Source: Amoebophrya sp. A120 (Eukaryota; Protista; Dinoflagellata). Taken from it: 64,000 nt of DNA. The position numbers and the translations under genes were made by a program. Shown here one piece after another: positions 8,401 through 56,472 of this stretch. The notes beneath the pieces were generated by a model. The model was not told where the DNA came from. It worked only from the letters and a program-made list of their open reading frames with translations, and made no database searches. Each line of letters begins with the position of its first letter. Within the stretch, counting starts at the first letter, position 1. The DNA is taken from assembly GCA_905178155.1 (NCBI GenBank), contig CAJINV010000007.1, positions 2,957,151 through 3,021,150 of the forward strand, given 5' to 3'.

Positions 8401-11400
8401 TGGACCAGCTTGGCGTTTTCGCTGTTTTTCGCCGCGAGTTGGTGCAAGCGCAGGTAAAAGGCCTGCATCCTCTGCGGCACCATGCGCCGGAAGGAAAATG
8501 ATAGACAGCACGCGGAACTGCTCGTCCTGGTTTGAACAGCTTGATCGCTGCTGTCGCGACCCGAGGAAATCGCGGCCGACGAGGATGTCGCTGCACCAGA
8601 GGAAGCAGAATCAGTCGAGGAGGATAGAGCCGGCGCTCCTCCCGCTTTACTATTGCTGCGAACTAATCCGCTTTCCTCGCCTTGACATTGCCTTTCCACT
8701 GCAGCAAGCAGGTCACATGTTATACCATACACTCCTCCCGGCGTTGTTTCCTCCGCGTTGCGGAATGTCTGTGGGCGACAGCCCGGGGTGGTTTCGTAGT
8801 AGTACTCGTTGTCGCTACTTTTGAAGAAAGATAGTAGTTCCGTGCTCGTCAAATCAATCTTCGGCACTTCTCCTCGTCCACGACCAAATGAGGTTGCTGC
8901 ACACGACCCGTCAGTTGCATCGTTTGATGCGGTTGTCGTGAACTCCTCGTGGTTTTCGTTCGTGTTACTCGCACAGGGCTTTGAACATGGTCCTGCAATC
9001 TTAGAAGCTGCACCTTTGATGCCAGACGTAGAAGTTGCAGCTGCTGACCTACTTGAAGAAGACGGCGGCGCACAACCTCTACCATTAATGCTGGTCGTCA
9101 TACACCACCGCACCAAGTAGCCGCACAAGTCCGCGCAGGACAAATGGTGTCGCAGTCCGCAGGCGAAAAGGAGCAAGGATTTCTCCGGCAGGTCCGGGTG
9201 CAGGAGGTGCTTGTATTCCCGGACAGGCACTGGAGATGAAAAGGATTCTTCCGCATATTTTTGGGCATCTTTCCTGCTCGTGCTTTGTTGGCTCGGATAA
9301 CTTCTAGAGCATCCGGTCATCTGCTTGTTGCTACCGTAACTTTTCTTCTGCCCCTTCCGTAATTCCCTCTCATTTTCTGACAGCAGCAGCAGACCACGGT
9401 TTGCCTCTGAGCCCGGAACCAAATCGGCACAGCAGTTGGAAAAGGGCAGGAACCGATTCTTCGTAAAGGTGTCTGCCGGCAGAGAATGCAAGAACCTGTC
9501 CGCAACTGCACCGCTGAAGCAGCTGCTGGCGCTACGACGACTTCTATTGTTCTTCCGAAGTACAACAGACGATTGACTACTGGAAGCCCGCCGGCGGCTA
9601 CAACTACCCACCGCGTTTGGGCACCAAGGCATGGTTCGGAGAAAGGAGAACAGGTCTAGGTTTCCGAAACAGTCCAGAAACAGCCCGCCGCAATCGTGCT
9701 GCACAAATTCGTAACACCGCCAGTACGACTGCATGGCAGACCAGTCCGGCGTCACGTAGTCGTCGTTGCAGGCCACGGCTCGCAGGCGGTTCAGTTCCCG
9801 GTCGCAAAAATTCACGAACTGCGTGATCGCGCAGAGAATTCTCGCAGATTTCTGCTCTGATTCTGCAGGATGAGATGTCAACATTCTGCTTCCATTTCTG
9901 CCCATGTTTCCACCACGCCCTGGTTGCCAGTAGTGCGTGTCGTAGACATGATGTTCTTGTAGGGCGCTTTGGTTTTCTTTTTCAATATCATCCCCGTTGT
10001 CATCATTTTCTTCACATGCCAAGTTGTAGGCGACGGCTAATTCGGAAAAAATCGTTTTGAGAAAAAGCTCGCTCCGCCGCTTAGATGCGACCGTCAACCC
10101 GGGCGAGAAAAGACTGCGGACGTTCAAATGTTCGTGCAGCCACCGGAGTTCCTGTTGCTGCTGTTCGGCGACCCCAACAGCCCCCCTGTTGCAAACATTA
10201 TGACCACGCGCGTCGGACTTATCATCATATCCAGTCCCGCAAAGCGCTGCGTGTCCGTGCCCGGCCCCACCTGCAGGATTTGTTGTACCACAACTAGTCA
10301 CCAGTATACTATCTACAACGCAGACGGGCAATTTGTCCGCTACTTTGGAAACCGAGTCCAAGGCCACCCGGTCGTCACTGTGCGGCGCCATCGCCAGCAG
10401 GTGCTGTCTGCTTGCCTTCACCAGCATCAGATTCCCTTTGCCGAGGGGCAGGGCAAACTGGGAGTCGAAAAGCGAAACCGGCACACAAGAACTGTCGGAA
10501 ATATCACAACTCTCGTCCTCCCTAAAGAGCAGCTGGTACACGTTGTTCCTCGTGTATTCCAGGACGTCATCGCGGATTTCGGTCGTTGGAGCAATGGCGT
10601 TCTCGTTTCCCTTGCAGACAAGCCAGAGCGACTCTAATAGCGCGTTCCAGAGCGTGGGGTCCCGCGTCTTTAACTCATCCGAGAAATTCTGAAGGAACTT
10701 CAGCATCGATTTGTACGCCCGGTCGGCGCGCGGGGGCCACGACAGAACATGTTCTTGAAGTGGTCCTGGATGAAAAGGAACAAACTCAGAAGAATTAGTC
10801 AAAGTGGTCTGATGCAGTTCCAAGACATTTTCGTACGTTGGTTCCTCCGAACTTGCAACACAACTTCCGCTTGTCTCAAAGAAGATGAAGGATTTCGCTT
10901 CGGGCGAAAGCAGGGAGGCGTGCGAGTCTTTGTGCGCCTCGCAGTACTCGGTATGCAAGAAAAAAACTGTGTAAGTGTAAGTCTGTCATGCAAAGTGTGC
11001 GACCCTGTTGCACTTGTCATGCTAGCCAACCATGAAGTCCTATTTCATTTCCATTTGTGCTTTCACTTATTAGTTGCGCATGACAGGCTTTGTCTGACAT
11101 GCAGAACAGATTTGTAATGCTGTCACCTCAAGACACCTACACTAACACAGTTTTTTTTCTTGGATACTCGGTGATACGCGTGTACTCGTCGAGAATGTAG
11201 TGCGCAACTGTGGGGACGGAAAGTTCCTGAACTCCGTACACTCGTGCGAGAACCGACTTCAAAGCCGACCGCGCGTCACTTGTGTCGGTCTCCTGCTGAG
11301 GGACAACTACATGAGCACCACTTTGATTTTCTGTCGCCGGCAATGGCAAATTCGAATTCGTCTCGAAAGCCTGGAAAATATCCGTGTCCAGAACCAGCAC

Positions 11401-14400
11401 GGCATGCGCAAACTCGTACTTTTCCAGCGTACTCAGCGTCAACATATGATCCTCGCGGTCATCCTCTGTTTGTTCACCAGACGACTTCGCGACTGGGATG
11501 CTACAACTGCTCTGGTCGTAGTTACTCAGCAGAGACGTGGCGGCGGTCCTGGAGAAACAAGCATTGCGTGACTGTTGTTGCCGTGCTCTGCTAAACTCCA
11601 AGTCGTGCGGCAAGGGTTGCGCCACGTTCGACGCCGACGTGTAGGAGCTGGGTACCGACGTCGTGCAAGAGTCAGACCAATGAGTGGAAGGGTGAGACTG
11701 GAGCGAAAGCTTCTTCTTGTCAACCCCGGCTATTATACCTTGTGCCGCTGTTCTTGAGGAACTGCAAGCTGTGTATGTGTTAGAAGACGACGCATCGTAC
11801 GTCGCCGCATCTTCGGTGTACAAGTAAAGACTTGTCGAATCTTCGTTCACGGAGGTATTGGCGGAATAGGAGCTTGTCTTGTCTATGTTTGTTTCACCGC
11901 CACTGCCAAGAACGTTGTTGGCATAGTAATCATTCCTGTAGTTGTAGGTCGTTGAAGGAAAGGACGTCGAAGCCGCGGTAGAAGTGGAGGAAGAAGGAAA
12001 ACGATTCGACGAATTTGCTGAATTTTTCAAGCCGCAGGAAGTTGTCGCAGCAGCACTAGCACCTGTGGGAAAAAGCAGCAACGGTTTCTGCCTTCGCCAG
12101 TATTTCTCCCCAGACTGCTCTGACAGTTTCTCATGTTCTGGTTTAGCATCGCGGTCATCTTTTTCCTCTTCACTCGTAGTATGTTTTCCTGCCACCCAAC
12201 GAAGCCACGAAGTCGAGGGCGAGTTGTTGTGGGATGATGAAGAAGACACCCCAACGTGATTGCCATTCAAGTGGTTCGCCGTGGCTTTACAGAAGAACGA
12301 ATTGCCGCCCAGACGCCTGACGGGAACCAGATCCAGCTTCCGCAATCGGTCCAAGAGGCTTTCCGGTAAAAACAGTTGTGACGTCGTCGAAGACGAAGAC
12401 ACATGCTCTTCTTGTTGTTCCAGGCTGCCCCCCGCGAATATGCTAACCGCGTACAGAAAAGCCCCGGCCCAGCCTGGGGTTTTTTTGAAAAGACTGGTAC
12501 TTTTGTCCACTTCTTGACGTTCCTGTTCCTCCGTGCTGATGTCCAGTGCGCCGCTTGCCGTCTGTTTATTCATACGCTTCGTACAATTTTTCGTTGTGCC
12601 ACTTTCTAAAAACTGCAGCACCTTTTCCACGATTCCAAAGTCGAATTTTTCCACTCCCAGTTGCTCCATCACGATCTCTTCCCGCTTCGACCGGCAGAGG
12701 CAGAGCCTTCCCTGGACGCCAGCAAGCTTCAGCAACTCTTCCGGCAGGGCAGCGGTAATGAGTTGAGCCGTCAAAACTGAATTTCTGTTGCCGTCGGCCG
12801 CCTCGAGACGACCAGAAGCAGCACCTTCCGTGGCAGGTGCTACCGTAATTGCCAAAGAAATCGCGATCGCGTCTTGCGAGGACACGAAAGCGCTCCCGTC
12901 GCCGCGATTGTCCGGAGCCGGAGATGCTGAACTACACGAAGAGGACGTTGAACCAGATGGGCCCGCACTAGCAGCTGCGCTGCGTTTAGAAACTTGATTC
13001 CAAAGTGGCAAAACCGGCACCGTGGAGCGCATGTCCAGCGAAATCGACAGGGTTTCTAGGTCTTGCTCATGTCCAAAAAGCCCTTCGTTGTCCGATCCTC
13101 CCAGTAGCACCTGAATTCGACCCTCGTCCTGACTTGTAGTGGAAACATTCGTTCTCGATCCAACTCCACCGCAAGTAGAAACAAACCCCGCTCTCACCTG
13201 CGCCCCGGCGAGCAGCTCCGCCAAGTCCCAGGGCTCCGGGAGCTGAAATCCACAAAAATGATCATGTCCTCGCTGCGAAAGAACTGCAGCTGCGCTCGAA
13301 CTCGTCCCAGGCAACACTTCACGTCTGCACGTAGCTCCCACCGCCTCCTGCTCTCCTCTCAGAAGTTGCGCGATCCGCGGCGCGCAAATGGTCTTCCACT
13401 CGGTGTCGGTGCACAGGTGGGCCAGGACTTTCAACAAACGGTCGAAATGATACGTGGACGTCGAGGAATCAACGCATGTCGGTGGTACTCTAGGCTCTTC
13501 CCCTCCTCTTTCACAGCTTCGTTCAAAAGCAGGTGGCTCACCATCCCCTTCGTTGTGTCTTCTTTTCTCCGAACTACCATCGCGCACTATTCTACTTCTG
13601 CCGACGTGAAACACGAAGGGGGGAAGAGGTGGTGTCCTGGTTTCACTACCGACACTCGCTGCACATTTATTTGGCTGTGGTCGTTTACCAACTGCCGCAG
13701 ACGAGGATGAAAAATCGAGCAGTGATAGAGTGGAAGTCGACTTGTTTGGCAGCCGCGAACAATTATCTGCAAATTTCTGGCCCTCGATGAAGATCCCAGT
13801 AGAACTTATTGCAGTTTCGTCCACGATCACTTCCGCTCTACCAGCGTGTTCCACTGAGCCCGTGCGGGCAATAATTTCCGCTTCTTCCCCCAGAAGAAAT
13901 GATCTTCCGGCGCCTTCACAACCTCTCGACTGCTCGTTCTTGTTGGTTCTAGAACCGAAATTGCGCTTCGGTTGCAGCTCCCACGCCAAAGACATGCGGT
14001 CATCTTCGCGATGATCAAAAGCAGTAGTTGCGGATACCTTTATCCCCGGTGTCTGTCCGTTCGCACGAGCGGCGTCTGCTACATTACCACCTCCAAGGCT
14101 CTCATTACCACTTCTCGTAGACACCAGGAGAAAACATCTGGTACGCGGGGTCGTAGCGAGAGAAGCGGTCACCGCAGCCGGGGATGTTCTTGAACTAGAA
14201 TCCTCCGTACAGAATGTCGTTAATCCTCCCCCGATGAAGCAAACCACTTCTGCATCGTAAACGGTTGCTGATGTGCCACCTTCTGTTGGCCGTTGCGTCG
14301 TGTTTGATGTTCTCCTCTGCGCATTATTGCTGCTTTCCTGCTGCTCTCGTCCTCCTGCAAGTTCTGCGCCACCGCCCGTTTCCGCACTTGTTTCCGTAGT

Positions 14401-17400
14401 ACTGCTGCTCCGAAAGTGCGATACCAAGCAGCGCGTTCTGTGCGCGAGGAGCACACATTGTGTGGTCGCGGACTTGTCGTCGCCCTTGATGTCGTGAAGG
14501 TGACCACTACATTCTGCCTCGAGCAACTTTATCGACTCCAGCTCCGGTAAAAACAGCCACATCTTATCCCACCGGGATGAACTTCGCGACGAAAAAATCT
14601 CAGTCTGGAGCACGCTCTTCACGAAAGCGGCGAAAGAACTTTCGCCGTTGACGTCATGTTGCGCTCTTGTATCTGTTTGTTCATCTTGTTCTTGGCATTT
14701 TTGCTTGTCGACATCTGCAAGCAGAAGCTTTGGATCTTCTGGCTCTTTTGTCGACCTCCTCGACGCGGTCGAGATTGATATCGTTGCTGCGGGTAAATTT
14801 GAACTACTTTTCCCAGTCGTGTCCTTAGTTAAACTGCTATTCGGACCCGTACCGAGGCAGAATTCCAGTCGTTCCTGGTCCCCAAGTAGCTGGAGGGAGA
14901 GGCAGCAATTTCGTTTATTCCCGTGAGCAGTCTGGATGTCTGTTCTACTCAGAAGTTTTCTGATCAGGGTCCCGAACTCCGTCAGAAACCGGGCTTGCAG
15001 AGCGGCGGACCACACCGGAGGAAGGAAATCTGACGACGAATCGGCTCGGCCGGGGCAACAAGCATCATCTTTCTTACTGCGCGACGACGTCGACGTACTA
15101 AAACAAGAAATATCTGTTCGGTTATTGTACGCGTCATGCAGAATCGCTTCCAGTGCAGACGCAGCTCCTGTTTCATCGTCGTAGTAGTTCACCGCGCGAG
15201 ACAAAGCACTTCCTGCCTTTATTTCGTTCACTGGTTGGTCTTGGTGCTCAATACTTGTCTTCCCCTTCCCCGCCTTGGTCGCGTTGTTACTATTGTCACC
15301 GTTCGAAATCGCTTTCATCGCCTTGGATTTGTTTTGCTTTTTCTTCTTCTTTGAAGAACCCACCGCGTTCATCATTTCCTCGCGCGAAGACCCCGGCTGC
15401 TCGGGCCTTGATGTCAGAGCCAAGTTCGACGGATTTTTGGCCAGCGCCTCGTTTGCTAGTGGAGGACCTGCCTTTGAGCCGACGGCTGGTGAAGGTCTTC
15501 TTTTTCTTGTATCGTCCTCAGGTCGCTCCATACCCAATTCTTCACCGTGCTCCGCGAGGAAGGACAAAAAGGACTGCCCTTTCGCTATCTGTTCAAACGA
15601 TGCTGATGGTACAGTGCAAGTCGAAGATAAATCGTGCAGACTTCTGTAACCAGCCCGTGCAAAAAAGCCAATTCTAAGTCCATCGCTTCCACTTCTGCTT
15701 GTTTCTGCACGATTTCCACAAATGTTACTTTCCTCCCCCGCCTTCAGATTTTTGTTTCCATGATCGGCGTCATCTGCAGCACTTGTGGACCGCAACCTTT
15801 GTGCTTCGTGGTACCGTTTCACTACCGAGCGCTCCATGGCATGCAGGTCGGCAAAACTCATCGCCGTGCGGTCGAAAACGCCCTCTAAATGCAACTTGCA
15901 GAAATCCATCAGCAGCGACTTGTCTTCTCGGCACAGCGATTCTTCGACCGCAGAGTGAGATTCTGTTCCACTGCAGTCGACAAAAGTACTTTTCTGCCCA
16001 ATTTGATCCTGTGGACCGCTCGAGATGAGCAATTGTTCTTTTGATATTTCCTGTCTGGTACATCCGTCAGTTGTCGCCCGAATAAAACCAAAATCTTCAT
16101 TATTCTTTCTTGACCTGTCCTGGACGTCCGCCACCAGAGAGGAGACCAGGGTGAGCAAGAGCCTCTCTTCTTGTACGGACGAGCGCAAGTAGCTCGCGCC
16201 TGGCTGGACGTCCGTCTCAGTTTTAAAATTCAAATTGTCCAACGGGGGCAACAGCGGTCGCAACAGCGTCATCGTGTACTGCAATCCAGCTTCAAAGGAG
16301 AGATCGCCGATGTCAAAGCGCAGCCGGGCTTCGAGCTTCTCCCGCGCGGCTGCCAGCTCGTCGGAAAGGGAGGCTTGGGTGCTAGTTCTCGTTCCTGCGA
16401 TAGATGGTCCTTTCGGACGAGGTGGCGACTGCTCCTTGTCTCCACGATGATCTTCGGATGTTCTTGGAAACAAACACGACGACGGAAGGCGCAACAAAGA
16501 CCCAAAGCTGGTGCAAGAAGGTCCTCGTCCTGCTTCCTTTTCCTTTTCCAACACCTTCTTTGCGTACTCTTCAACGGCGCAGAAGCGCAAGAGGCTTGAC
16601 CGCTGCAACTTTTCCGACAACTGAGGGAAGAGTGCGTTGTTCAAAATGAGCCCGCGATTCCGCCCAATCCGTGCCTGCAACTGCTCCTCCGTCGGCAGCT
16701 GCCCCGTGGTGGAAAGGATGTCCAGAAACTGCTTGACAATCTCGTTGGTTTTCAACACGGGAATGTCCTCCCGTCCGCTCATAATCGGGTTGCTATTGCA
16801 ACTCGAGCTGGTCGTCGTTTGGGCCAGGAGCGTGGTACTAGCGGAAAAACCGGAAAAGGTTTTCCAAAACGGCGCAAAGTCCGGGAAGCAGCTGGCGGGG
16901 CCGATCCCGAGCTGGTCGAAGCTCTTCAAGTTTCTCGTGGCGCACAGCTTCTCGACGAAGTCGTACACCGAGCCCACCGCAGAGATTTCTTGGTAACACG
17001 AAAAATCGGTGGACACATCGTGCGTCTTGCGAAGCAGCTCGGCGAGAAAGGGCACCTGGTGTGGCACCCCGACGTTCAACTGGCGGTAGGTGTCCCGCTG
17101 GAAAAAATGGGCAATGTCGCGCACCACGCCGTTGTAGCTGGCGTCCACTTTTCCCAATCTCAACGCCTCTTGGTGCAGCATAAACGCGATTCTTTCCACT
17201 TTCTCCAGCGTCGCGGACTCTCTCGCCCAGCGCAGGTATTCGTTGCCCTCGTTGCCGCTCTTCCGGAGCTTTTGCACGAAAGATTGCAGTGTTTCGGAGG
17301 ACTGCGTAGGCGGGGAAAGGAGTTGCGGGTGATCATGGGGTTGCTGTACATAACCTTGAAGTTGTTGTGGCAGATTCATCTGTTGGTGCTGGAGATTTGG

Positions 17401-19071
17401 AGTCTGCTGCTGCTGCTGTTGCTGTTGAATATGAAAGTGGTTTTGTTGCACTTGCGAAGATGCCGTTGGCATTTCCATTTGGTTACAAAACGTCGACCTC
17501 GCCTGATTTTGCATGTTGCCTAGTTGTACACCTCCTACCGCGGAAAGACTGTTATAATGTTGCTCTGGACAACTATGCTGCTGTAGTTGTATATTCTCCT
17601 GTTGCTGGGTGCATTGATGCGGCCCGTTTGAAGACCCGGCAGCAACACACACCCCGCCCGGCTGAAAGTTCTGCGCGGCTGTACCACTACTATTTGGCGC
17701 ACAGCTATCCAATTGGTTCCTCCAGCCAGGTTGCTGTAGCCCGTCTAAAGCGCCAGGGGGTAGGGGCACCGAGTTACCGATATTGATGAAGGGCGCATTT
17801 TGATTTTTGTTCGTCGTGTGTTGTACTATTGTTTGCGGTTCTTGCTGTCCTGCTGCCGTTATTTGAGTCTGCTGCAGCTGTGGAACTGTTTCTGGTGTAG
17901 TAGACCTCCACGACCCGCCCGGGACGAGGAGCTGACTGCTAGTATTCATAAACAGATTCATCTGGTGTGAGCTACTCTCCCTCTGCTGCACCGGCAGCGC
18001 CGGCACGACCACCTGGGAGGGTGCTACTAGCATCTGTTCACCGCGCTGTTCCATGGTACCCAGCGCGGCGGGGGGCTGTGCCAGGTCGCTGTTCGGGGAT
18101 GGTCGTGATGTCACGGCCGCGGCATTAGTGGATGAATAACCGCCGGGCGTGGTCCTCGCCTGGCTGGTCGCCAGTACTACGGGTTCCACTTGCGGGGCCA
18201 TGTGATAACCACCTTGTCCTCGCGCGTGGTCATTGTGTGGTGGAGCTAGCTGTTGTATGTTGGTGAAGCTGTTGCTGTGTGGCAATAAAGCTCCCGGCAC
18301 GACAACGCAGTTCTGTGATTGTTGCCCCGAAACAAGATGCAGTTCTTGAGCACTGGCATTGTTGTTGTTACACGAACTTCTCGCCGCCGCAAGCACTCCG
18401 CCTTCGGAGCGGGTACCAGCTAGGACCACCGTTGGAGCCAGTATCGCCTGACTCTCGTCTTGATTTTCTGTATTCCTCCCACCTAATACATTCGTTTGTC
18501 GGACCACTGGCGCACTTTGGCTGCAGTTCAAAGGCTGTTTGTGCTCTTGCACGACGGGTGCCGGCCGGTCTCCGTTTTTTGCGGACAAAAAATCAGCTCC
18601 GCTATAATCTGCTGCAAAAACATGTTCCGTTATAACTTGATGTTTCGAGCCTCCAGGATGTTGTAGAGAGGACTCACCATCGACATCCTCTTCCAGGTCC
18701 GGTGTGCAGGTGGCATTCGTAGATGCAAAGTCAAGCTTTTCTTGCGACGGTGTTGATATCATTGTTCCATTGCAGATATTCCTCACCGGCGGGGAGGTGA
18801 AAGTCGCGTCTGTGTCTGTGAGCGATGGCCCAAATTTAGCAGCCATTCGACCGGCTGCCCCAGCACCCTCGTCGGGCCTACTTCGGTCCGGGCTCAGAAA
18901 GTCGGAACGGCCCGCGAGTCCAGGGTTCGTCTTGCCGGGTCCACAATTATTGCCCTCCGGCACCGTCGTCCCGTGGTCACCAACAGCCTGGCAATCCAGG
19001 TTCTGCATTTTCGAGCTTCTTTCTCTCGGTGGAACCCGGTCGTTCCTCGTTGCCCTGTCCGTTCGAAACAA
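5439..19071 (-). CDS. Giant ~4,470-aa protein, 2 exons (19071-11167, 10946-5439); Q-rich N-terminus; NO VEIN-like motifs
   Basis: ORFs 11137..19071 and 5439..10958 join in frame (TRITE|YCEAHK) after removing the element at 10952-11166. Motifs SVYDFVEKLCATRNLKSFDQLGIGP and SFEQIAKGQSFLSFLAEH resemble the NO VEIN N-terminal region (recalled similarity, not searched). Confidence 0.7.
10952..11166. mobile_element. Introner-like element (215 bp), TIR family B, 5-bp TSD CTCGG
   Basis: ctcgg|tatgcaagaaaaaaactgtgtaagtgta ... tacactaacacagttttttttcttggata|ctcgg. Confidence 0.92.
17404..17425 (-). repeat. CAG/CAA poly-glutamine tract within a Q-rich region
   Basis: ctgctgctgctgctgttgctgttg on + strand, read as IQQQQQQQQT. 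Confidence 0.6.
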
Positions 19072-19782
19072 CGCTGACGAAAACCTGACTCAGCAGCTTC
19101 TACAATTTTTCTACTTACTTATCTCTCTCCCCCCACAAACAGAGGCCAAAAAAGGCAACGCAAAAAAGCAACAAAAAAAAAAGCAACTTCCACATCAAAA
19201 AGAACTTAACCATAAACTTTCTAAATCACAAGGTGAAGTAGTCAACCAGTTAAGAGACAAGGGAAGCAAAAGTCTTTTTCCATAACAAGGGAACCTGAGC
19301 ATCGGTGCGTGATCTCTAGAGCTTGTTCGGGAGAGGAACAAAGAGCAGATGAAGTAGAAGACCAAACGAAACAAAGGATCTTTTCGTCGACAAGAATCAG
19401 GAAGAAAGAACATCCTCAAGGCACCTCTTTGTCATCAGCTTCCAAAAGCACTTCCGGTCGGGGAGGCGCTGTTTCCTCTTATAAAGCGTCCTTTCATGAT
19501 CAGACTGGATAAACTATTTGCACATTCACATTCATTCATCACGACATCTATTTAGTTTTAATGCACATAGAAAAGACTTCTGTGTGACATCGACAATGAC
19601 TTTCTGAAATCAATGATAAGGCTACTGCCGTAGCTGCTCATTTGCATTGCACTACAGGGTTCTTCCACACGGAAAACTATATCGAATTTAGAGGGAAAAT
19701 CACGGCGGACAACAAAAAAATTGCAGAAGTTGCACCAGTTGCGGTCTGTTCCGAACCAATAACACGGGAAGATGAAATCGAG

Positions 19783-25131: not shown

Positions 25132-26093
25132 TTTTTTTGCAGTTATTTTTCTTCCAAGAAAAGTATAGATAAGTAATATATAAGGATGGTCAAAAAGTAA
25201 AAATGAAGACAAAAGCAGTGGAATCCCACTCACTAGCATAGATGCAGCTAGGGCTAAAAACACTACACGTACACAAGTAAGGCGGATTCGAAATAATGAG
25301 GTTGCGAGCGTTGTAAAGCTGGTCGGAGCAACCAGAGCGGGCCGAGATGATCTACTTAATACTGGTGGTGGTGTAGTTATGCAAAGAAATGCATGCGCAA
25401 CGACGCAACCCTTGTTTTTGTTTTTGACCGAAGTTGGCAAAAGATGCATAAGGATAAGAGTAGATAATGTTCATGAGATAAAAGGTGGCACTCAAACATG
25501 AGGGAAACAGTACAAGATCACGACCAGGGCTGCGCGTTATAAATTGACACTACATTTTCATACTTCGACTTAAAGTTAAAATCAAACTGCTGGTCTTCAT
25601 CCACTACATAGATCTTCTGGAGGACGGGACGCCGGTTCTTGGACCTTTTGCAACAGCACTAGGTCTTCGGTGCAGAACAGATCGGTGTTGACAACGCTAG
25701 TACCTAGATCTTCCACTTCAACTAAGATAGAACGATGAAGTACATAATATCCTATCTAGATCGACGTCTTTAGTGACGAAACAACCGTTAGAGCGAGATC
25801 CAGCATTGAAGATCCTTGGCGTTCACGATGAGACTTGTACATGTCTACGTCGGGGGCTACGAGAGGCTCATTAAGTTTAAGGTTATCATCCTACTTCTTT
25901 CCACTTTCGCAGCAGAACAACTACCCTCACAAGGACAAGACAGATGAGAGTCAGTTGTTTTTTGAGCCATCTACTACAAAGCTGCCTCTAGATATGTTGA
26001 AACTTTCATCATCACAACAGCACAGCGAGCGCAGATAGTAATTATACATTCCATCATACAAATTGGGCGAAGCATAGCTCGTCCTGCTCTTAT

Positions 26094-27264: not shown

Positions 27265-27317
27265 TTTCTTTGTGTAGTAGTTCTTTCACTATGAAGGTCG
27301 CGCCCGGAGGGCGATAT

Positions 27318-45143: not shown

Positions 45144-48100
45144 TCAGTCTGAAGTGGAATCATCCCAGATCACGATCGGAGCCGCACAAACACCCCTTTC
45201 CCACAGACCGATTGGTGAGGTTGTCTCGGTAGGGGTCGCCCCGGGTCCTGTTGATGGGAATGGTGATCCCGGACGGTTTCCTTGAGCCGCCTGGTTACGA
45301 ACGCCCTCGAGGCCGCAATCCCTTCCGAAGAGTTTGGTCGGCGGGCCGCTTTCCTTTAGGATGTCATCGACGTGCTTGCTACGCCAAAACGGGAGGTTCT
45401 CACTTCCGTAACTTTGCGCCATTTCCGCGAATATTCTTACATGTTTCCTCAGTTCCCAGAGCGAATCTTCATTCTTCTGTAAAGCGGTTTTTAAAGGCGG
45501 CAGGTCCTCGATCTTAATGGAACCCCGAGATTCTGGCTCAGAACTGCACTTGTAAAAAAAGTGGATAGCAACATTTACCAGCGAAAACTTATTTTCCGTG
45601 GCGTCTTCTCCGAATGAGTCCACCCCGCGAAACTGCAACACGACTCGTCTACCATTGATCCCGTCGACATATTCGGTACTGAAGGCTGCAAGAAACCAGC
45701 GCATATTTTGCAGCGGAAGGGTGCGGAGACGAACTACGTGTGGAGAGTTGGGCTGCGAGGGTGGAGGAGCATCTCCCTCGGCTCCCGATGGCGGGTCAGA
45801 ATCATATTCTCGAACCTCGTAGTTTCGACTAAACCTCAACAAATTCCGAGCGATGACCGACCACCAGGAGGTAGGCTCCTCCTCACGGCTCGCATCTGAA
45901 GATGCGGAAGACGATCCACGAGCACCAGTATCCTGAGCAAAAACGTCCCCACACCAGAGTCAAGATGGGAAATCTGCTAGACAAATCAACCAGCTTTAGT
46001 TGTTTCGCATGACAAGTTTGTCGTCGTAGTCTGGTCCTGTTTAGCTAGTTCAGCAGCATCACAGATCTAGAATATCATGCTGATTCTAGCATTAAAAATT
46101 CCCAAACACGACTAGAAAATGCTTCTCATGGGGCTCCGCATGAGAAACTTTTTTGGCATGTAGATTGGGGTGGGGACGTTTTTACTCAGAATAACCAGGT
46201 CGCGTTCTTCTTCTTGGCACGTAGCTGCTGTACTCCTCATCCGGCCTTCCTAGCTCTTGCACAATGCGATATCCAAGATCAATCAGCCCAGACTGGTCTG
46301 CACCAGCGTCTCGCAGGTCGTGCTCTTCCCTCTCTGCGCGTGCGAGCACAGTTCGCGTGTACGAACGCAGTGCCAGTTGCTGGTTTGCGGTGAGTACGTC
46401 CTGCAGATCACGCAACCATGATGTAGTTCCCGAATCACGGTAGATCTCGCGCCGAACTGTCGTTTCCAAAAGATCTTGATAGTCAAGGGCACCTGATGCA
46501 GTTAGTGTGCTTGTGGGAAGATGAGACCTGCTTTGTTCCTGCGTCGAAGCTCGTCCAGGATCCGCAGTGGTAGCTCCTGACGGCACGACCAACGAAATCG
46601 TAAGAAAAAATCCCCCCTCCCAATATCGAAGAGGTGCGCCTTCTAATGCTGATTTGTGGCCACAAATCGCGTCTGTCCTGCAAGGAGGCAAGTCCACAGG
46701 CTCCGCCGCATTATGCAGGCGGCTTGTCATCCTGTTGGGCCTACAGCGCGGACGTTTTTCATGCTAAGCGCCTAGGCCAAAGCCTCTCTACTCAGGCTTA
46801 CTATGGGTCTGCAGTCCTCTCCAGCACGACAAACCTGATTTGTGTACGCAAATCCAGCATCAGAAACTTCGTTTTTGATATGGGGAGAGGAGATTTTCCC
46901 TTTGGATAAACGAATCAGAATCTTCCGGTCGTGTGCTGGTCACACTCCCGTATCTTGCAAAGTCCTTTATCCAGTCCACTACCCTTGCGCTGCTAAAGGT
47001 AGCAAAAAGGCTCGGGAACGTCGAAATACAATCCCTTTCCGCTGTGACAGCCAAAGAAGAACGCGCTGGTAGTACAGTAGCAAGACCGTCACTGCTCTGC
47101 TGAGCAGTGGAAGGCTCTCTCGTCGTGTAATGCGATTTCAACACCTCCGCGACATAACCTGCGGCACACTCGCAGGCCGCTGTGTAGGCTCGGTCAAACG
47201 CAGCCCTCTGCCGCTCAACCTCTGAACGAAGACCTGCTGTTCCCGGCAACAAACCGATCTGTTCTGCTTCTAGCGCGTTGCGCTTCGTTCGCACCAAGCG
47301 CAGCAGCGCACGCAGCGCTTCCGGCAGCCGGCGAGCTTCCGAAGCGGGAGCTTCCGAAAAGTTTTGTCCATTTTGGCTGTGCGCCTCGAGTGTCCGTCGT
47401 TTCCGCTGGGACCACGCGGAGGAAGTAAGTTGTATTGCCGTTCCGCGATTGTGCGCCATCCTTCGGTGGTCCCGCATCTCCTCCAGCAACGTTGTTAAAA
47501 AAGACCGCGGCACCAAATCACCAGCTTCAGGAGCGGTGTCGTCTTCTTCTACCCGAACTTCCTCCGGATCCTGCATTCTATACAGCAGTAGCACATTCTC
47601 ACCTTCTCGCTCAAACGAGCGCGCGTTTTCGCCGACTATGCGGCTGTGCAGCCCGAATGCCCGAGCCCCGGAACGGAGTGCCGCGACTGCCACCAGGAGC
47701 TGGGAAAGCTCCCCGAGCTTCTTGAGACGAGTGTCTAGTAGGTCGTGTTCTCGCGTCTGCCCGGATGGCAGTAGTCCCTCCCCCCCATGGGCACCGTTAT
47801 GTCGAAGCGCAGCTACTAGCGCGCCTCGGTCCGGCGCGGCGCCGCGCAACTGGTGCCCCATCAGCAACTCAAACGGCGCCCCATTTACGAGCCGTTCCCA
47901 CTCCTCACCGCGCAACCTCCAACCCCAAGGCTCACTCTGTGGTAGCGACGGTCTCTCAAACTCAAACATGTCCCGGAAAAACTGCAGTCGCGGGTAGAGC
48001 GCGTATAAGTCAGAAGATTGCTCATTCTGTCGATTCGCTGGTGTGATCACCTGCTCTGCATCAGGAATATCACCCGCATCAGCGAGTTCCTGCGCAGGAG

Positions 48101-51100
48101 AAAGTTCCCGACGCGGCCGCGTGTTAGCTCGCCGGTATCTCTCCTCCGCCTCCCGCCGTTCCGCGGCTCTGATAAAGTTGACATCGACGTGCTTCGTCTG
48201 ATTTCCGTTCGCCCTTGCTGCTTTCACCAGCTTTTCGCGGACCACACTTGCTGGCAAGCGGGGTGTAGGTGGTAGCCATGAGCCTTGCAAATAGCGGCTT
48301 CTTTCCCGTCTTACGCGCCGCCACCGCAGGTCCCGTTCCGTCAGCTCGATGGCAGAAAGAGGATCGCGCGGCGGTGGTAAGAACGAGGGCATGTCTAGTA
48401 CTTCGCGCGTCCTCTGCAGCCGGTGTTGTTGTTCTTCTTCCCCGTCTTCCCCCGGACTTGTCTGGGCCTGATCAACGTCAACCGCTGCACTTCCAACCTG
48501 ACCGCTTCCGGCGCTGCCCGAAGATGCCCCTTGCTGCTGTGGATGAACTTGCCCGGAAGATGAATCGTCCGCACTGCCCGCAGCCGCGGTCCTCGCTACA
48601 GGTTCCTCCAGGTCGCGCTCGTCCTCGTCCCCAAAGTAGAACAAAACCGCTTCTTCCGGGGTCAAAGAACCGGTTCTCGACGCCAGGTCGTTGCTCGGAG
48701 GTGCTGCTGCAGAAGAAGGTTGCGGACCAAGAGTGCCCGTTTCAGTGACTGGCCGTGCGCTCACGGGCGGAGAAAACGGGTCAGGCGTTTGATCAGTGGG
48801 AGGAGTAGCCAGCGCCGTACTACCCGCATCTACAACCGCGGAGGTATGCCCAGCGTCGCCTCGCTCTTCACCCATTGGTAAAACAGGTGTCGTCGGGAGA
48901 AGAAGAACGTTTCCAGAACCAGTGCTAGCCGCGCCGCGGTCAGCGTCAGCAGTCAAAGCCTCATCTCCGTCGTTGGATAAAGACGGCCCTGCGTCCCCAG
49001 GTGAAGCTACGACCTCTACCGGACTCCCGGGTGCTGCAGTGGGAGGAAAATTTGTTGCGATAACAGCTGAAGACAACTGATCACTTTCCTGGAGTTGTAG
49101 TTCTCCTGCTGGAGACGGGACAGCCGCACTGGACGCCGCTGATGCCCCTTCCAGAGCTGCAGACACCGTCACGCCAGATTCCTCCGCTAGTACCTCCGCC
49201 GACGCCACTGTTCCTGCTTCCGCAGGAGCTTCGGTAGGCCCGTCGAGTGCTTCGTGCTTTGGGGCGGGCGTCGGGCCCGCTTTTGGGGACGGAGGTGGAG
49301 GATTACTCGACTCGGACTCACCAGCTGGTGCTACATCAAAATTCGCTAGTGCCTCCGTCTTCGCGCCTGCTTTTGCGGAAGGACCAGTTGTCGTTCCACT
49401 TTCGTCACCTGCTGTCGCGTCTTGATGGTGTTCACCATCATCATCTTCTTCTCCAACACCTGTACTCGCTTCTGGCGTGGAGATCGCTCCCACCGCACCA
49501 GCCTCTCCCCCGCCCACTTGCACGTTCGGGCCGCTGGTTGGCGGCTGCGGCACAGACCCTCCTTGGGGCTGCTGTGCGAGGAAAGGCTGCGGGAGTTGGA
49601 TAGTAGCTTGCACCTGCTGCGGCTGTGGTGGCAGTTGCGGTGGCAGCTGTGGTGGCAGTTGTGGCGGCAGCTGCGGTGGCGGTGCTGAGGCCTGTGGCCG
49701 TGCTGCAGACACGCCCGGTTGCGGTCCTGGTCCACGCGTTCCTGCGAGACTGACCTGCTGCTGCGCGTTCCGAACAACCGCTTGTCCACCTGCTCTTGCA
49801 TCGTGTGGTCCCACCGTGACTCCTGGTGGCTCCGGAATGTCAAGACCCGGAACGCCGACTATATCATCTACCGCCCCTGGTCCGGTCGTCGGGAAGAACG
49901 GCGGCGGAGGTTGCAGTGGCGCTAAAGGAAGAAAGTCCCCACCACCTTCACCTCCAAAGCCGTCTGAAGATCCAGCAGTGATACCGTGGTTGTTTCCCGG
50001 CCCCCCTGATATGCCGGCACTGGTTCCGTTTCCGGATTCTCCTGCCGTCCACACCGGTTTATTGTGTGCTTCGCCCATTGGATGCTGTTCGTCCCCCGTT
50101 CCCGGCAAAAACCCAGAAACCGTGAGGGACTGCCGCGAGCTTTTCTTCCGTTGCATGTTCGCCATGGCCACGCCGATGCCCACCGACATACCCACGCCGC
50201 CCAGGACCACCAGCACCAGGATCACGCCGGGCAGCGAGATGACCGACCAAACTGCGGAGAGGCAGGTGCGCGATTTGTCGCTCTGCTGTTGTTCGTGGTG
50301 GTCGCCCTCTTGGACTTTGTTGCGGACTTTTTTCGGTGATGTCGTGGACGACCCACGGGGAGAGGATCTCGTTCCAAGCGAGGATTTATTTCCTAGCAGC
50401 AGCTGATCGCTTTCGTCGAGGTTCTGTTCCTGATTCTGTCTCATCTGTTCTTCTCGTCCGGGAGGAAACGAAAAACCAGCTTCGTTGTCTTCCAGGGCAA
50501 GGTTCTCGTCGTCACCAGCATTTTTCGCAGCGGAAGTTACTTCTGGACAGGCCGTCCGCCGTTCATTTGTTTCGCCGATTTTTTGATGGGATGAAGATAC
50601 ATCCACCTCGTTCGCTTGTTCATCTACTGTGCAGCCAGGAGGACTCTCACCGTTTTTTCTGTTTCTTTGCAAAAGCGCCGACGTCTCGCTTTCGCGGTCC
50701 GAGCGAGAGCTCGTCACGACAGAGGTCTCGCCTGCTTCTACACCGCCCTCCTGCCCCGGAGAACTACCGGACAGCCCCGTGCTTTGCGTCTTGTTGCTTC
50801 TCCCACTCACGATGTGCTTTCGGTGCAACACGGTGGCGGAGCTTCCCGGGATCGGGCGGATCGGTGCACGCTGGAACGGAAAATGATTCATCAGCTCCTC
50901 AACAGCAGTCATGTGAGCATTCGTTTCAAGCCGGCCACTTTGATTCACTTCCAACTGCTGGAGACTTACCAGTTCACGATGCAAGCACTCCGCCGTCGGC
51001 CGCCGTTCCGGCTCGCGCTCCAGGCACGCTTGCAGCAGGTACATCAGGTGTTCAAACCTCAACCCGTCTAATTGTTCCGCGTAAGGCCGCTGCATCTCCT

Positions 51101-53372
51101 CGTGGCTGCCAGAAGCGGGTGCAATTTCCGTAGCACCCTGGAAGTTTCTGTACACTTCGTACCGGTCTGGATACTGGATTTCCATTTTTTCATCCACGAT
51201 GCAGAACATGACGCGGTTCCCCCCGCCCCTCTGATTGTACAGGTACGCGTGCGGCGGCCTCCCGTAGATCATCGCGTACAGGATAATCCCCAGCGACCAA
51301 ATGTCCGTCCCCGGCTTCATCTTCATGCTACTTTCATACTGATCCCCCTGGAAAAAGGCCTCCGGCGCCATGAAGAGCGCTGTCCCGCACTGCCCGTGGC
51401 GGGAAATGTGCGTTTTGTCCTGCTCCAGCGCCTTCGCCAGGCCAAAGTCGGACACCTTGATCTTCGTTTTCTGCTCGAACATCAGCAAATTCCCCGGCTT
51501 CAGGTCGAAGTGTACAATCTTTTGCGAATGGATAAACTGCACCGCCGCGGTCATCTGGCGGAAGCACTCGAGAATGGTACGAAGCGGCATGAAGAACTCC
51601 TGTCGCTGGCGGCGGAAAATCAGTTTTGGCGGCTCTTGGTGCTTCTTGCGGTCGTCGTGTACTTGGTCTTCTTCTACTTCGGGACCACAACCGCTACCCT
51701 CTTCATCAAGCCTGTTCCCATTTATTTCCCCCGCAACATTTTTGCTCCTCTCCACGAGGTACCAAAACTCCTTGTGATAACTGTGAAAGTCGCAATCGGC
51801 AAACTCGAGCAGAATGAACAGCCGCAACGTGTCCGCTTCGTAGCGCGAGCCGAAGCAGCGCACCACGTGCTGGCTGTAGCCGGACTTTCTGTTTTCGCTT
51901 GTCAATTGCTCCAGGAGCAGAACCTCTTTTTGGTACGTCCTCAGCCGCTCTTCGCTCTGGGCCGCCACGACCTTCATGGCGTAGGAGTTCCCGTTGCGGA
52001 CCACGCGGTAAACTTCCGCCGTGCCCCCCCGGCCGAGCAGATTTTGCACCACAAAGGACCCGTCATCGAGCGAAAACGACGACTTGACGTCGCGCAAGGA
52101 ATTTAATTCGGCTCCTTCGGTGTTGTCGTCGTTGCTTTCTGACAGAAGGGGTGGCACGGCAACAGCTGGTCCTGGTGCATGCTCTGATACAACTACTTCT
52201 GCGTTTTGTCCTCTAGTACCAGCTGGCTGGGTACAACTAGAAGCAGCTTTATTTTGCGTTAGTGGCAATAGACGCTGCTGCCCTGATGTCGCGGGTGCTG
52301 CCCCTTGTCTGTCCAGAAAATAACCGGCACGGTGCCGCGTTGCGCTCGTTCCTGCACCGCGCGGTGCGTTGTGCTCGTTCCGGTTGATGTCGTCCCCTCC
52401 TTGTGCCAACAGCTGGTTGTAGTATTCAAAGCCACTGTTAATATCTGACGAACTCGCCGTTGCGGCCGGGCGTCGCGCGTCATCGCTGACCCGCGGCAGA
52501 AACTCGGCGTCCGGGAGAGTTTGCGTAGCCGAGGAACTGTTGAAAAGAAAGCGCTCTTGTTGCTGGTGGGTGGGCGAAGAAAAAAGTAGCGGCGGAACGG
52601 ATAGTGGCGGCCTGTTCGATGGGGAGCAAGCGACTGCAGTTGTCCTTGACGTCTCGCGTGCAGCTGCCCATTCTGCTGTAGCGGATGGCCGTTCTTCAAG
52701 CGGACTTGTTTCTTGCGCTTTCCAATTAGCGGAATGCGACGCAGCGCCCTCGTTGTCGCCAGCGAGCAAGTACGCGAAAGAACCTCGTCCTCCGGTGTTG
52801 CTGCAGAAAGACGCTCGCCTGCCCTTGTCGGTACTGTCGTGTCGCCGTGGTTCTTGTGATGCGGTTCCAGTACCGACAGCAGGATTCTTTCGCTTCTCGT
52901 CTGACAGGAGCTCCTCATGCTCGCATCCCAGTGAATCCTGCGCTTGCTGTTGATAAAACTCTTGCTCTACTACTTCGCAGTGGGAACCATTCACAAAGGC
53001 TTGAAAAGCCGCGTTTCTGTCTGCGATCTTGTTTCTATTTTCCAAATGTAGTTGTGCCGCGACTCTGTTTGGTGTGCCTTCGGTGGTATCCGTGTGGTTG
53101 CTACAAGTGCTGGGGGTTCGACAGGTTTTGTTCTTGTTCCTTTGGGTCGTCGCTACTACACTTTTACTTTGGTCGTGTCCCTCTGTCTGCCTGTCTTGGT
53201 CGTGCTTCTTGTACTCATTTTTCTGTCTTGACGTTGTTGAATTTGATATATCATCACCAGAATTATAATCGTCCACTTTGCTGCGCTGTCCTTCATCTGA
53301 GGTCGAAATCATACTGCATGACGCGGCGTCCTCCTGATCTGCAGCGCAGTGAAGCGACATCTCTTTCCGCAC
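45144..53372 (-). CDS. Mps1/TTK-like protein kinase + single TM helix + long C-terminal region (~2,540 aa), paralog 2, 3 exons (53372-46909, 46590-46194, 45923-45144)
   Basis: Same kinase motifs; TM segment VISLPGVILVLVVLGGVGMSVGIGVAM. Three ORFs join in frame after removing two TIR elements, and exons 2-3 match the C-terminus of paralog 1 (LQFRGV, RKHVRI/RHVSI, VDDIL). Confidence 0.85.
45929..46193. mobile_element. Introner-like element (265 bp), distinct TIR, TSD ACCAG
   Basis: accag|tatcctgagcaaaaacgtccccac ... gtggggacgtttttactcagaata|accag; removal gives RTRPG|ARGSS. Confidence 0.92.
46596..46908. mobile_element. Introner-like element (313 bp), long imperfect TIR, TSD AACGA
   Basis: aacga|aatcgtaagaaaaaatcccccctcccaatatcgaa ... 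ttgatatggggagaggagattttccctttggata|aacga; removal gives DSDS|LVVPSG. Confidence 0.85.
49621..49680 (-). repeat. 12-bp coding tandem repeat (PPQL)n
   Basis: PPQLPPQLPPQLPPQLPPQP in kinase paralog 2. Confidence 0.8.
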
Positions 53373-54354
53373 GGTTTCTTTTCGTTTTCGGCAGTGAGGA
53401 ACTGCATGCTTTTACTCTGGGCTCCGGGGGGTCACAGCTGGCATTTTCTTGGAGGAGTGCTGTCGTCCGAAACGTCAATTGATTTGCACGGCAAAGCGTG
53501 CAGTGCTTGCTAATGCTGTTAAACTGTTAATTTTCCACTAAAAGAAAAGTCCACGATAATTTTATACTAAAGTTAAGATAGTTACAGCAAAACATACTAC
53601 AGTCGGCGCGAGATAAAGACGCCTCAAAAAGGCAAACTGTCCCCCTCCATGTCCACCCCTGAAAAATTGTACAGAAACGCGATCGCGTTGTTTGGTTTCA
53701 TTTTAGAAATAATGTATCAAAACGCCAAATCCATACCAGTCTGCAGCAGGACTCGTCCGCGAAGGCCTGCCACTGAGGGGAGGAACAGCCGCTGCCTCGC
53801 CCCTGCAATATTATATCGGACGCACGTGTCGTGTGACTTCAACTTGAAATCAACGTTGCGTCTCACAAGATCTCGACGGACCTGACAAGATCTCAAGTTG
53901 ATCTTTCTTCTTCGCCTACGATGTGCAGAAGATCCAAGATCTTTCCACGTTGTGAATGCAAATAGATCACGAGGAGCACCTGCTGCGTCAACAAGATGAA
54001 GATATTGCCAAAATCGAAAAATACAAACGCTTTCTCAATAAGCACGGACCTCTGACGATCCATCTTCTCTTGTGAATCATTTGTAGTCTTGTCTCGCGAT
54101 TATAACAGGGTGATCATTGTCCTAGCGAAGTAAAACAGGCGTAGACGTCGGAGGCCTTTTTTCCGGTCGTCGAGAATGCGAATCAATTCATTATACTCAG
54201 TTTTTCTTTTTCTATTGCGCGCACGATTTTTGAGCGACGGGAACGTCAGAACTACTTCTCTCGGAAGCTTGGAGAAGGATTATGCGCATCTTCTCCATTC
54301 TAGCACCGCACCAAAGCTGAGTTTAAGTAGGTACAACTCCTGTGATAATGACAT

Positions 54355-56472
54355 TCATTCTGCGCGATCCACGCGTCGCCACTGGTTATCTAGGTCCTCC
54401 TTGAAGATGCGAACGGTTTCCTCCTCCCCGCAGGAGAGGCAGACACACAACCCCGTCACGGACCACGTGACACGGTTGACCGGGAGGTTGTTCTCTACAT
54501 GTATCTATCAAATGCAAAAATGTCTGGGTCTGGAAGAGTCATGCTGCTTTTGCATGACACAGTAGGGCTGTCATGGAAGCTCTAGCATCACAGGTTTCGA
54601 GAAGCTTCCGCAATGCCAAATCCGCATGACAAATGCCCCACTTTGGTGACAGAAAGTGGGCAGCTTTTGCTGCCTACGCATGAGAGATTTTTGTGTGCTG
54701 TGAAATGCGCATCACAAGTTTGCATTCTTCCAGACCCAGACATATTTGCAATGCATAGTATCGTCGCGCTGTTCTGCCAGTTCAGTCCCTCCATGGTCTG
54801 CACCCATATTTTGCACGTTCCGTCCTCGTATCAAAAGTAAAAATGTCTGGGTCTCGAAGAATGCATGTTTGTCATGCTTGTCTGGCATAACTTCTAAATC
54901 TGTCATGCACGTTACCCAAGAGCTCCATTTTTCTGTGATGCAGCAACGCAGTTTGTCATGCAGAATAGGCAACACCTAGAAGCTCAGAAACTTGTCATGC
55001 TAAGCCAGTATTTGTGGCCTCATCATGAGACGCCACCCAGCATCACAAGTTTCCAGACCCAGACATTTTTACATTTGATACCTCGGAACCGGAGGCGAGA
55101 AAATTCGAGGGGATGCCGATGTTCGGTCGCCAGGCGACGGATCGCACGGGCCCTGCATGAGAGGTCGGGGGCGGGACGGTGGAGCCCCCTCCAGACGGGT
55201 GCTGGTCTCCTTCGGGGTTTGGTGGCACTGGAGGTGAATCGCCGCTACTGCTCAGAGTGCCCTCTTCCACCCACTTTTTGTCGTCGGCGTTCCAGCGCCA
55301 TATTTTCACGTTGGAGTCGAAGCCGCCGGACACTAGTCTCCGCGGCCGCAGCGCGGGCATCATGTACCCGCCCTGCACCGCAGGGCCGGAGGCGAGGGTC
55401 GCCGGGCTGACGGGCACCGCCCAGCTCACGCTGGAAACGCCGTTTTGATGGGCTTTCAGCACGCCAATCTTCATTAGGGGGCCCGTCTGGTTTTGCGCCT
55501 CGAAAATGGTCACGAGGCCACTGGAGGAACCCGCGGCAATGAACAAGCCGAATCTGCGAAAATAAAAATCTTCTCAATTATCCGATGCAAAAAGTCTACC
55601 TCGATTCAGGGTTGGTTCTCTTCCACGTGCAGCTGCGGCGCATGATGTCGAGACAAACAAACCTCCAATTATCAGGAGTCTCATTTCAGCCTCTTCTTCC
55701 CGTCCTATGCAGCATCTAAGTATGCGCAATAAGATCCGATCGATAGATAAACATTGAGAAATAATCGTAATCCACGCAATCAACACAATACTCTTTCGGC
55801 CCTATCTGCACAGTTGTGGCAGCCCCGTCCAGCCTTTCTCGCCACACCAGGGACCAGTCGCCGGGCCGCCCTTCTCGCCAAAGCATCACACTGCCGCACG
55901 CGCCGCACGCTGCTATCATCGTCCCTTGTGTCGGGTCGCTCCAGCAGATCTGCTGCAACGGGCCGGCTACCTGTCGTTTTTTGTTATGTTTCGTTTATGT
56001 ACTATCTCGAGAACTTCCACGGACACGGAGACTCGTGCAATTTACCTTCTACGAGAATCTGCTAGAATTAGCCGTGTCGAGACACCAAACAAATCTTCCA
56101 CTGAAACCTATACCCAAAACCACAGCAGGCATCACAATCACTGTTGGTAGGTACGTAGAAAGAAAAAACATATACATCTGGGTGCTCCAGTCTGGCGACC
56201 AGTCTGGCTTCTTCTGTGCCCGTGGCCAACTTTGACACAATATTCTCCCCCGCTGTGGAGATTTCGTAGACAAAAATCACCCGGTCGCCGCAGACCGCGA
56301 GCCGTTTGCCATAGTAGTCGATGGCCAGATCCACGATCTGGGTGTTCTCCGGCACGTCAATCGTGCTGTCGGCCACCAGATTCGTGCTCCCCCCGCCGCC
56401 GCTGTAGATGGGAGCCGATGTCATGTACTCGCGCAGCCGCGCGTCCGCGGGCAACGTCGGGGGCGCGACCAT
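54355..56472 (-). CDS. SEC13: Sec13 WD40 protein (COPII/nucleoporin), 386 aa, 5 exons (56472-56176, 55970-55792, 55553-55081, 54823-54758, 54500-54355)
   Basis: DYYGKRLA, GPLQQICW, GPKEFGLFIA, AHQNGVSSVSWA, RLVSGGFDSNVKIW, VRSVAWRPNIG, LASGSE|DGTCKIW, RVTWSVTG, KEDLDNQW. Two GT-AG introns (56175-55971, 55791-55554) and two introners; exon total 1161 nt. Confidence 0.9.
54506..54757. mobile_element. Introner-like element (252 bp), TIR family A, TSD GTATC
   Basis: gtatc|tatcaaatgcaaaaatgtctgggtctggaaga ... tcttccagacccagacatatttgcaatgcata|gtatc. Confidence 0.93.
54829..55080. mobile_element. Introner-like element (252 bp), TIR family A, TSD CCTCG
   Basis: cctcg|tatcaaaagtaaaaatgtctgggtctcgaa ... 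ttccagacccagacatttttacatttgata|cctcg. Confidence 0.95.

Follow-up and report, generated by a model that had tools for sequence, protein, structure and literature searches.

The question raised by this locus is how introns whose borders share no fixed dinucleotide can be removed exactly from RNA. The locus is a 64,000-nt window of the dinoflagellate Amoebophrya sp. A120 (contig CAJINV010000007.1, positions 2,957,151 to 3,021,150; all coordinates below are those of the window), and the introns in question are introner elements (IEs), bounded by terminal inverted repeats (TIRs) and flanked by 5-bp target site duplications (TSDs). We found that these elements are retained in the DNA, that they leave the RNA exactly, together with one TSD copy, where RNA-derived contigs or annotated proteins cover them, and that the upstream TSD copy is the one kept where the two copies can be told apart. 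The elements were already known: they are a rediscovery of the non-canonical introns, or IEs, published for strain A120 by Farhat et al. 2021 (BMC Biol 19:1; PMC7789003, cited throughout for its main text and supplement legends). Exact intron removal without a fixed border dinucleotide, reported for this genome in 2021, challenges the textbook rule of splice-site recognition, and IEs show that transposons are able to create introns at once.

Repeat scans, TIR and TSD scans and then a profile built from the TIR termini, all run over the whole window, identified ten IEs of one kind, 158-266 nt long and all within minus-strand genes. Their ends have the form TAT[C/G]-N6-AAAA...ATA (TAT, 7 nt and an A-run); when the 20 termini were aligned, 19 began with TAT and one had decayed to TGT, with the A-run coming next. 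The TSD was perfect in eight of the ten, had 1 mismatch in one and 2 mismatches in another. All eight perfect-TSD copies lie inside 10947-55085, the interval named by an earlier, preliminary description of this DNA for its finding, and the two mismatched copies (561-757 and 824-981) lie outside it. Judged by eye, the elements fall into about five sequence families, the largest with five copies, and the 17-mer core of that family gave 10 matches against 0.14 expected in shuffled sequence. DNA contig depth rose from ~25 elsewhere to 8,000-240,000 in the bins holding IEs, and the IE families therefore number thousands of copies genome-wide. The ten elements and one degenerate relative are given below, where X3, X4 and X7 denote runs with RNA-derived contigs, P0001, P0016, P0033 and P0034 are annotated A120 proteins, and z refers to hairpin stability.

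561-757, minus strand: IE; intron 556-757, including the 3' TSD copy at 556-560 (sense GAAAC), with the 5' copy at 758-762 (TGAAC) kept; contigs X3 and X4 join 555 to 758 (skip 202, ambiguity 3), P0001 reads ..KMIEQFGK.., found by the TIR profile, hairpin z = -2.9.
824-981, minus strand: IE; intron 819-981, including the 3' TSD copy at 819-823 (sense GGGAG), with the 5' copy at 982-986 (GGAAG) kept, giving K and not E; contigs X3, X4 and X7 join 818 to 982 (skip 163, ambiguity 2), P0001 reads ..LVGKHHSG.., outer TIR decayed, z = -1.5.
1056-1348, minus strand: degenerate IE-like intron of the exonuclease gene, borders GT-CC or CG-AC; contigs X3 and X4 join 1055 to 1349 (skip 293, ambiguity 1); an unused cag ends at 1064, and the inverted ends lie around CTGCAGAAAAGT.
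10952-11166, minus strand: IE between the 1848-aa and 2650-aa open reading frames (ORFs) of a giant gene; sense TSD CCGAG (10947-10951 and 11167-11171); ORF continuity.
22910-23171, minus strand: IE in the metallophosphatase gene; sense TSD ACAGA; P0033 requires exact 267-nt removal.
23213-23424, minus strand: IE in the metallophosphatase gene; sense TSD GGCCA; P0033 requires exact 217-nt removal.
26141-26406, minus strand: IE close to the 3' end of a coiled-coil-like ORF; sense TSD TCGTG; ORF continuity only.
32334-32586, minus strand: IE in the CCCH zinc-finger gene; sense TSD AGGAA; all six registers of a 258-nt removal reproduce P0034.
45929-46193, minus strand: IE; sense TSD CTGGT; ORF continuity only, with DNA contigs crossing both borders.
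54506-54757, minus strand: IE in the Sec13 gene; sense TSD GATAC; GT-AG in no register; P0016 requires exact 257-nt removal.
54829-55080, minus strand: IE in the Sec13 gene; sense TSD CGAGG; the sole GT-AG-capable copy (4 nt of the 5' TSD copy kept); P0016 requires its removal.

The contigs of X3, X4 and X7, which we take to be RNA-derived because they join exons and one of them carries a T8 tail at 19479, were mapped on positions 1-20000 and come from one sample (X3 = X4 = X5 = X7). They skip 556-757, 819-981 and 1056-1348, the first two skips being exactly an old IE plus one TSD copy; the third joint, in the same gene as the first two, reads as GT-CC or CG-AC, and splicing there passes over a cag of canonical appearance that precedes the acceptor by 8 nt. 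Among these contigs we found none bridging 10952-11166, and those of X7 that touch 10951-10980 continue into unlike sequence and are probably other copies of the repeat. When four annotated A120 proteins were mapped back to the window, they required exact removal of the element and one TSD copy at seven of the ten IEs (561-757 and 824-981 for P0001; 54829-55080 and 54506-54757 for P0016, Sec13; 23213-23424 and 22910-23171 for P0033, the phosphatase; 32334-32586 for P0034, the CCCH protein). The two phosphatase elements, which differ from each other, enclose a micro-exon of ~40 nt (23172-23212), with 23213-23424 on its sense-upstream side, and the protein needs both removed exactly. Excising the element and one TSD copy in silico gave one open frame at the eight IEs checked, including 54506-54757; such frame restoration proves nothing alone, as it is expected of any exon insertion. 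The Sec13 of strain A25 (P0017) was judged by eye, unaligned, to have a similar C-terminal sequence around the site of 54506-54757.

We slid the junction through all six registers of each TSD and read the border dinucleotides. Among the eight perfect-TSD IEs, GT-AG was possible only at 54829-55080, GC-AG only at 23213-23424 and GA-AG at 32334-32586, so that our table reproduced the preliminary description on all three; the remaining five allowed only pairs like GT-GA/TA-AG, AT-AG, GT-TC/GT-GT and GT-TG. That description had listed pairs of the same type for these copies, but its count needs correcting, as there are eight perfect copies rather than nine and five others rather than six. GT-AG was unreadable in nine of the ten IEs, and no register yielded a constant pair. 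Since a random 5-bp TSD permits GT-AG with p = 0.044, one GT-AG-capable copy among eight is about chance level, and canonical ends are not enriched among the IEs. No AT-AC ends were found in any register of the ten IEs, and no minor-spliceosome small nuclear RNAs (snRNAs) were reported for A120 (PMC7789003), so we rejected a U12-type identity.

The position of the cut within the TSD can be read where the two copies differ. At 824-981, where the preliminary description had proposed reading K or E in the mRNA to fix the register, we ran that check and found GGAAG (K) and not GGGAG (E); at 561-757 the mRNA reads TGAAC and not GAAAC. Both readings come from the RNA contigs and are the same in P0001. 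The letters of the 5' copy are thus kept at all three differing positions of the two mismatched IEs, and therefore the exon keeps 3-5 of the 5 nt of the 5' TSD copy, most or all of the 3' copy being lost along with the element. That the 5' copy is the one retained is a small addition to the main text and supplement legends of Farhat et al. 2021 (PMC7789003), in which the border position 'remains unknown' (Fig. 3 legend) and the distance between inverted repeats and splice sites is given as 1-5 nt (Fig. S23 legend). Given a constant register, GC-AG at 23213-23424 (1 nt kept) and GA-AG at 32334-32586 (2 nt kept) are excluded, and GT-AG at 54829-55080 (4 nt kept) is possible. The approach works on two copies here; applied genome-wide, it would settle where the cut falls and thereby limit the mechanisms that come into question. 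The number of nucleotides allowed before TAT is 0-2 at 819-981, 0-3 at 556-757, 1-2 at 1056-1348, and 1 at three GT-AG introns that have TAT ends and a 2-3-nt junction repeat. A cut 1 nt before TAT is the only register fitting all six of these informative introns, and we offer it as a hypothesis rather than a result; introns cut there would start with N-TAT, and the base at that position is G in five of the ten IEs.

Minimum-free-energy RNA folds gave a terminal hairpin of 18-37 pairs in all ten IEs (z between -1.5 and -9.6 relative to dinucleotide shuffles), and in folds including 30-nt flanks the TIR stem began at element nt 1-3 in nine of the ten (at nt 1/1 in seven). Within genes of one strand, members of the same family point either way with respect to transcription: 26141-26406 matches 22910-23171 (78% over 186 nt) and 54506-54757 (73% over 92 nt) in inverted orientation, and 32334-32586 matches 54829-55080 in the same orientation (74% over 132 nt). 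Removal is thus independent of the internal orientation of the element, so that a symmetric signal is required, for which the termini are the natural candidate.

One internal motif is also shared. The 7-mer CATGACA/TGTCATG has 18 occurrences within the IEs (2,332 nt in total) and 4 in the remaining 61,668 nt, one of which falls in the intron 23890-24167; the 6-mer CATGAC/GTCATG is present in all ten IEs, across unrelated families and in both orientations. There is no CATGAC in two ordinary Sec13 introns, and we rejected it on this ground as a general branch-point motif; it could be a motif for transposase binding or for splicing recognition.

The preliminary description had also placed ordinary GT-AG introns in the same genes as the IEs, namely in those for Sec13 and the CCCH protein, and this was borne out. 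Four GT-AG introns were mapped, and all four start with GTAT:

55554-55791, minus strand: ordinary Sec13 GT-AG intron with a polypyrimidine tract.
55971-56175, minus strand: Sec13 intron that can be read as GT-AG; its inverted ends are a T-run and an A-run, and it has a 3-nt direct repeat (GTA).
32006-32226, minus strand: ordinary GT-AG intron (GTATGG...ttccag) of the CCCH gene.
23890-24167, minus strand: GT-AG intron of the phosphatase gene, mapped with P0033; its inverted ends (TAT...ATA) are IE-like, and it carries three CATGAC-type motifs.

The Sec13 pre-mRNA combines a GT-AG intron with an intron that has no possible canonical border. Two of the four introns, 23890-24167 and 55971-56175, have IE-like inverted ends and 2-3-nt junction repeats, and in these features they seem to stand between IEs and ordinary introns.

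In our reading the IEs are hairpin-ended insertions resembling miniature inverted-repeat transposable elements (MITEs), which lie in exons between 5-bp target duplications and are absent from the mRNA together with exactly one duplication copy. Because removal is exact, the borders are variable and both orientations are removed, the cut positions would be set by the element termini or the hairpin and not by dinucleotides, the 5' cut probably falling 0-2 nt before TAT and the 3' cut 3-5 nt after the other end. As to the catalyst, we lean, with modest confidence, towards a permissive spliceosome, since IE-like introns with GT-AG ends exist, the IE ends resemble GTAT and a near-complete spliceosome has been reported. 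The preliminary description had inferred either two splicing routes acting on one pre-mRNA or a very permissive spliceosome; the coexistence of GT-AG and non-canonical introns in one pre-mRNA stands, and the alternative itself is sound but was already posed by Farhat et al. 2021.

Several points weigh against this proposal. First intron bases other than G and ends other than AG are very unfavourable for known spliceosomes, and U1 snRNA went undetected by the authors of the genome (PMC7789003). The element 824-981 is cut at its edge though its outer 7 nt are unpaired, and therefore a pure stem-base ruler does not fit; the stem base alone is not the ruler. The register itself rests on two copies and on assumed constancy. 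RNA joints were obtained at just two IEs and one degenerate intron, from runs of a single sample, and at none of the eight IEs of 10947-55085, of which five rest on annotated proteins and three (10952-11166, 26141-26406 and 45929-46193) on ORF continuity. Nor are the contigs and the annotated proteins independent, as these data may be those behind the public annotation, whose models are RNA-seq-based. The raw RNA runs X10 and X11, labelled as the same species, had 0 reads on 36400-56399, and X9 contains none of the genes there, so these runs are not a test of splicing.

The strongest competitor is a second, spliceosome-independent route, in which an endonuclease and an RNA ligase would recognise the hairpin of the IEs and the GT-AG introns alone would go through the spliceosome; we regard it as rather doubtful. 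It would account for the lack of any register with constant dinucleotides, for the tolerance of both orientations and for the strong terminal hairpins, and the failure to detect U1 snRNA (PMC7789003) speaks for it as well. A precedent exists in the nonconventional introns of euglenids, whose inverted ends pair, which have TSD-like repeats and which come out as circles rather than lariats, as described in the passages of PMC11282704 on these introns. Working against this route, the IE-like introns with GT-AG ends (23890-24167 and 55971-56175), together with the organisation of inverted and direct repeats reported for 15% of canonical A120 introns (PMC7789003), suggest a continuum with spliceosomal introns, and the GTAT of local 5' splice sites is echoed in the IE ends. 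The folds, too, gave no consistent support: in the minimum-free-energy structures of the ten IEs with 30-nt flanks we saw no recurrent bulge-helix-bulge or exon-exon helix, the flanks forming 0-21 pairs with each other. As the 3-nt bulges around a 4-bp helix that tRNA-type introns require did not recur, we rejected identity with that class.

Returning to the permissive spliceosome, the observations can be joined in a more specific picture, which we consider unlikely. The register would be fixed by the terminus, with the 5' cut 1 nt before TAT, such that the intron would start N-UAU, a mimic of the GUAU of local 5' splice sites in which the +1 base is free, and the 3' cut four nt past the other terminus in any sequence. 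A ruler-type spliceosome with no need for G at +1 or for AG would then make the cuts, and CATGAC would serve as an orientation-independent recognition signal.

It could also be argued that the elements are lost at the DNA level, by a ciliate-like somatic excision or through an insertion polymorphism, and that the RNA comes from empty sites, as precise transposon excision or an empty allele would likewise drop the element and one TSD copy. We consider this very improbable. DNA contigs at normal single-copy depth (23-31) pass from exon into element at four borders, and therefore the DNA retains the IEs; no element-sized skip is present among the 15 DNA joints listed (86 further joints lie beyond that list); and both RNA-verified copies are old, with decayed TIR and mismatched TSD, which makes polymorphism unlikely.

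A stable hairpin between short direct repeats is the classic setting for template switching by reverse transcriptase, and the apparent removal could in principle be such an artefact, the elements staying in the mRNA. A jump of this kind is expected to keep the 3' repeat copy, which is copied first, so that the persistence of the 5' letters wherever the copies differ (three positions) argues against it; moreover, the intron 1056-1348 has a repeat of just 1 nt. Retained elements would also stop or shift every frame, that of Sec13 included: stops occur in every frame in six of the seven IEs checked, and the seventh (23213-23424) has one open frame but a frame-shifting length. An artefact of this sort is less credible still than loss from the DNA. 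Finally, the use of nearby cryptic GT-AG sites with small in-frame indels, the outcome that the preliminary description had named as fatal to its claim, has a negligible chance of being correct and is excluded where testable, as we found no point in its support, the three RNA joints are exact and non-canonical, one acceptor is used in preference to an AG lying 8 nt upstream, and the annotated proteins fit exact removal at seven of the ten IEs.

These elements agree with the IEs of Farhat et al. 2021 in organism, in their ends (TAT, 7 nt and an A-run), in the 3-5-nt repeats, in the hairpin, in length and in RNA-supported non-GT-AG borders, and nothing essential differs. In that paper (PMC7789003) more than 60% of A120 introns are non-GT-AG, have the support of 3 or more RNA-seq reads and show no dinucleotide signature; the inverted repeats are 8-20 nt long and the direct repeats 3-5 nt (5 bp in Fig. 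S19), and introns average ~240 nt. The authors presented a hairpin model, noted that genes are co-oriented and called for 'an alternate splicing mechanism'. They found U2, U4, U5 and U6 in A120, along with an almost full set of spliceosomal proteins. The main text of the paper contains no mention of element orientation, the CATGAC motif, branch points or lariats. Later literature, as far as its passages on A120 go, classes the introners of this strain among diverse transposons and still calls the mechanism unknown, and a 2026 review, in its part on strain A25, gives a U1-70K homologue, which hints that a divergent U1 may exist.

Among other systems, the euglenid nonconventional introns (Milanowski et al.; Guminska et al.; both via the relevant passages of PMC11282704) are alike in that their borders are non-canonical, their two ends pair, TSD-like repeats stand at the junctions, a MITE origin is suspected and conventional introns occur in the same transcripts. 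They differ in that their pairing is short (CAG/CTG at +4-6 and -8 to -6) whereas the A120 TIRs span ~30 nt, and the lineages are unrelated. Circular non-lariat products and late removal have been shown for the euglenid introns. The tunicates Fritillaria and Oikopleura resemble A120 in a large-scale escape from GT-AG with a suspected MITE origin (per the tunicate passages of PMC13326754 and PMC11282704), but their introns keep preferred dinucleotides (AG-A(N), per PMC7789003), whereas the A120 IEs have no constant pair in any register. The introners of Micromonas, Aureococcus, Polarella and other eukaryotes use canonical GT/AG sites that they bring along or recruit, often out of the TSD, whereas nine of the ten A120 IEs cannot be GT-AG. 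Introners of this type were reportedly treated by Huff in 2016. Identity of the A120 IEs with canonical-site introners was rejected, GT-AG being possible in 1/10 and GC-AG in 1/10, with a chance expectation for GT-AG of 0.044 per copy. The likeness to the introners of these lineages lies elsewhere, in that they are DNA-transposon-like, have TIRs and TSDs and create introns on insertion, and A120 is itself listed as introner-rich (Gozashti 2022, 2025, in the parts dealing with these lineages).

Almost all long ORFs of the window lie on the minus strand. Three of the window's ORFs were searched, and the top matches were to 'unnamed protein product [Amoebophrya sp. A120]' at 99%, 96% and 100% identity. 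Pfam matches in the window included kinases, a WD40/Sec13-like piece, a metallophosphatase, an RNase_T exonuclease and SelR with SET; an Rfam scan of the window at gathering thresholds gave 0 matches. The single-exon ORFs 35824-43359 (2511 aa) and 46860-53411 (2183 aa) both have a protein kinase domain and share stretches at 73-85% DNA identity with a 9.7-kb offset, and they are therefore a tandem paralogue pair.

The sole sizeable non-coding stretch, 27366-28308, holds near-perfect palindromes at 27366-27418 and 27481-27616 (67-nt arms) and a 109-nt tandem repeat in three copies at 27945-28308. An inverted pair at 27663-27906 with perfect 5-bp flanks (sense GCAGG), which would itself permit GC-AG, was considered as a further IE and rejected, as its ends are of another kind and match the tandem unit and it lies in this repeat-rich non-coding stretch. 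The RNA run X9, labelled as the same species, had 77 partial reads on the 30-nt TIR 55051-55080 with one unlike flank, which suggests that some abundant transcript, possibly of another strain, carries a family-1 terminus. The RNA-derived contig ending at 19479, with eight T before that position on the plus strand, stops ~300 nt past the phosphatase stop codon, and this position is a poly(A) site of the minus-strand phosphatase mRNA.

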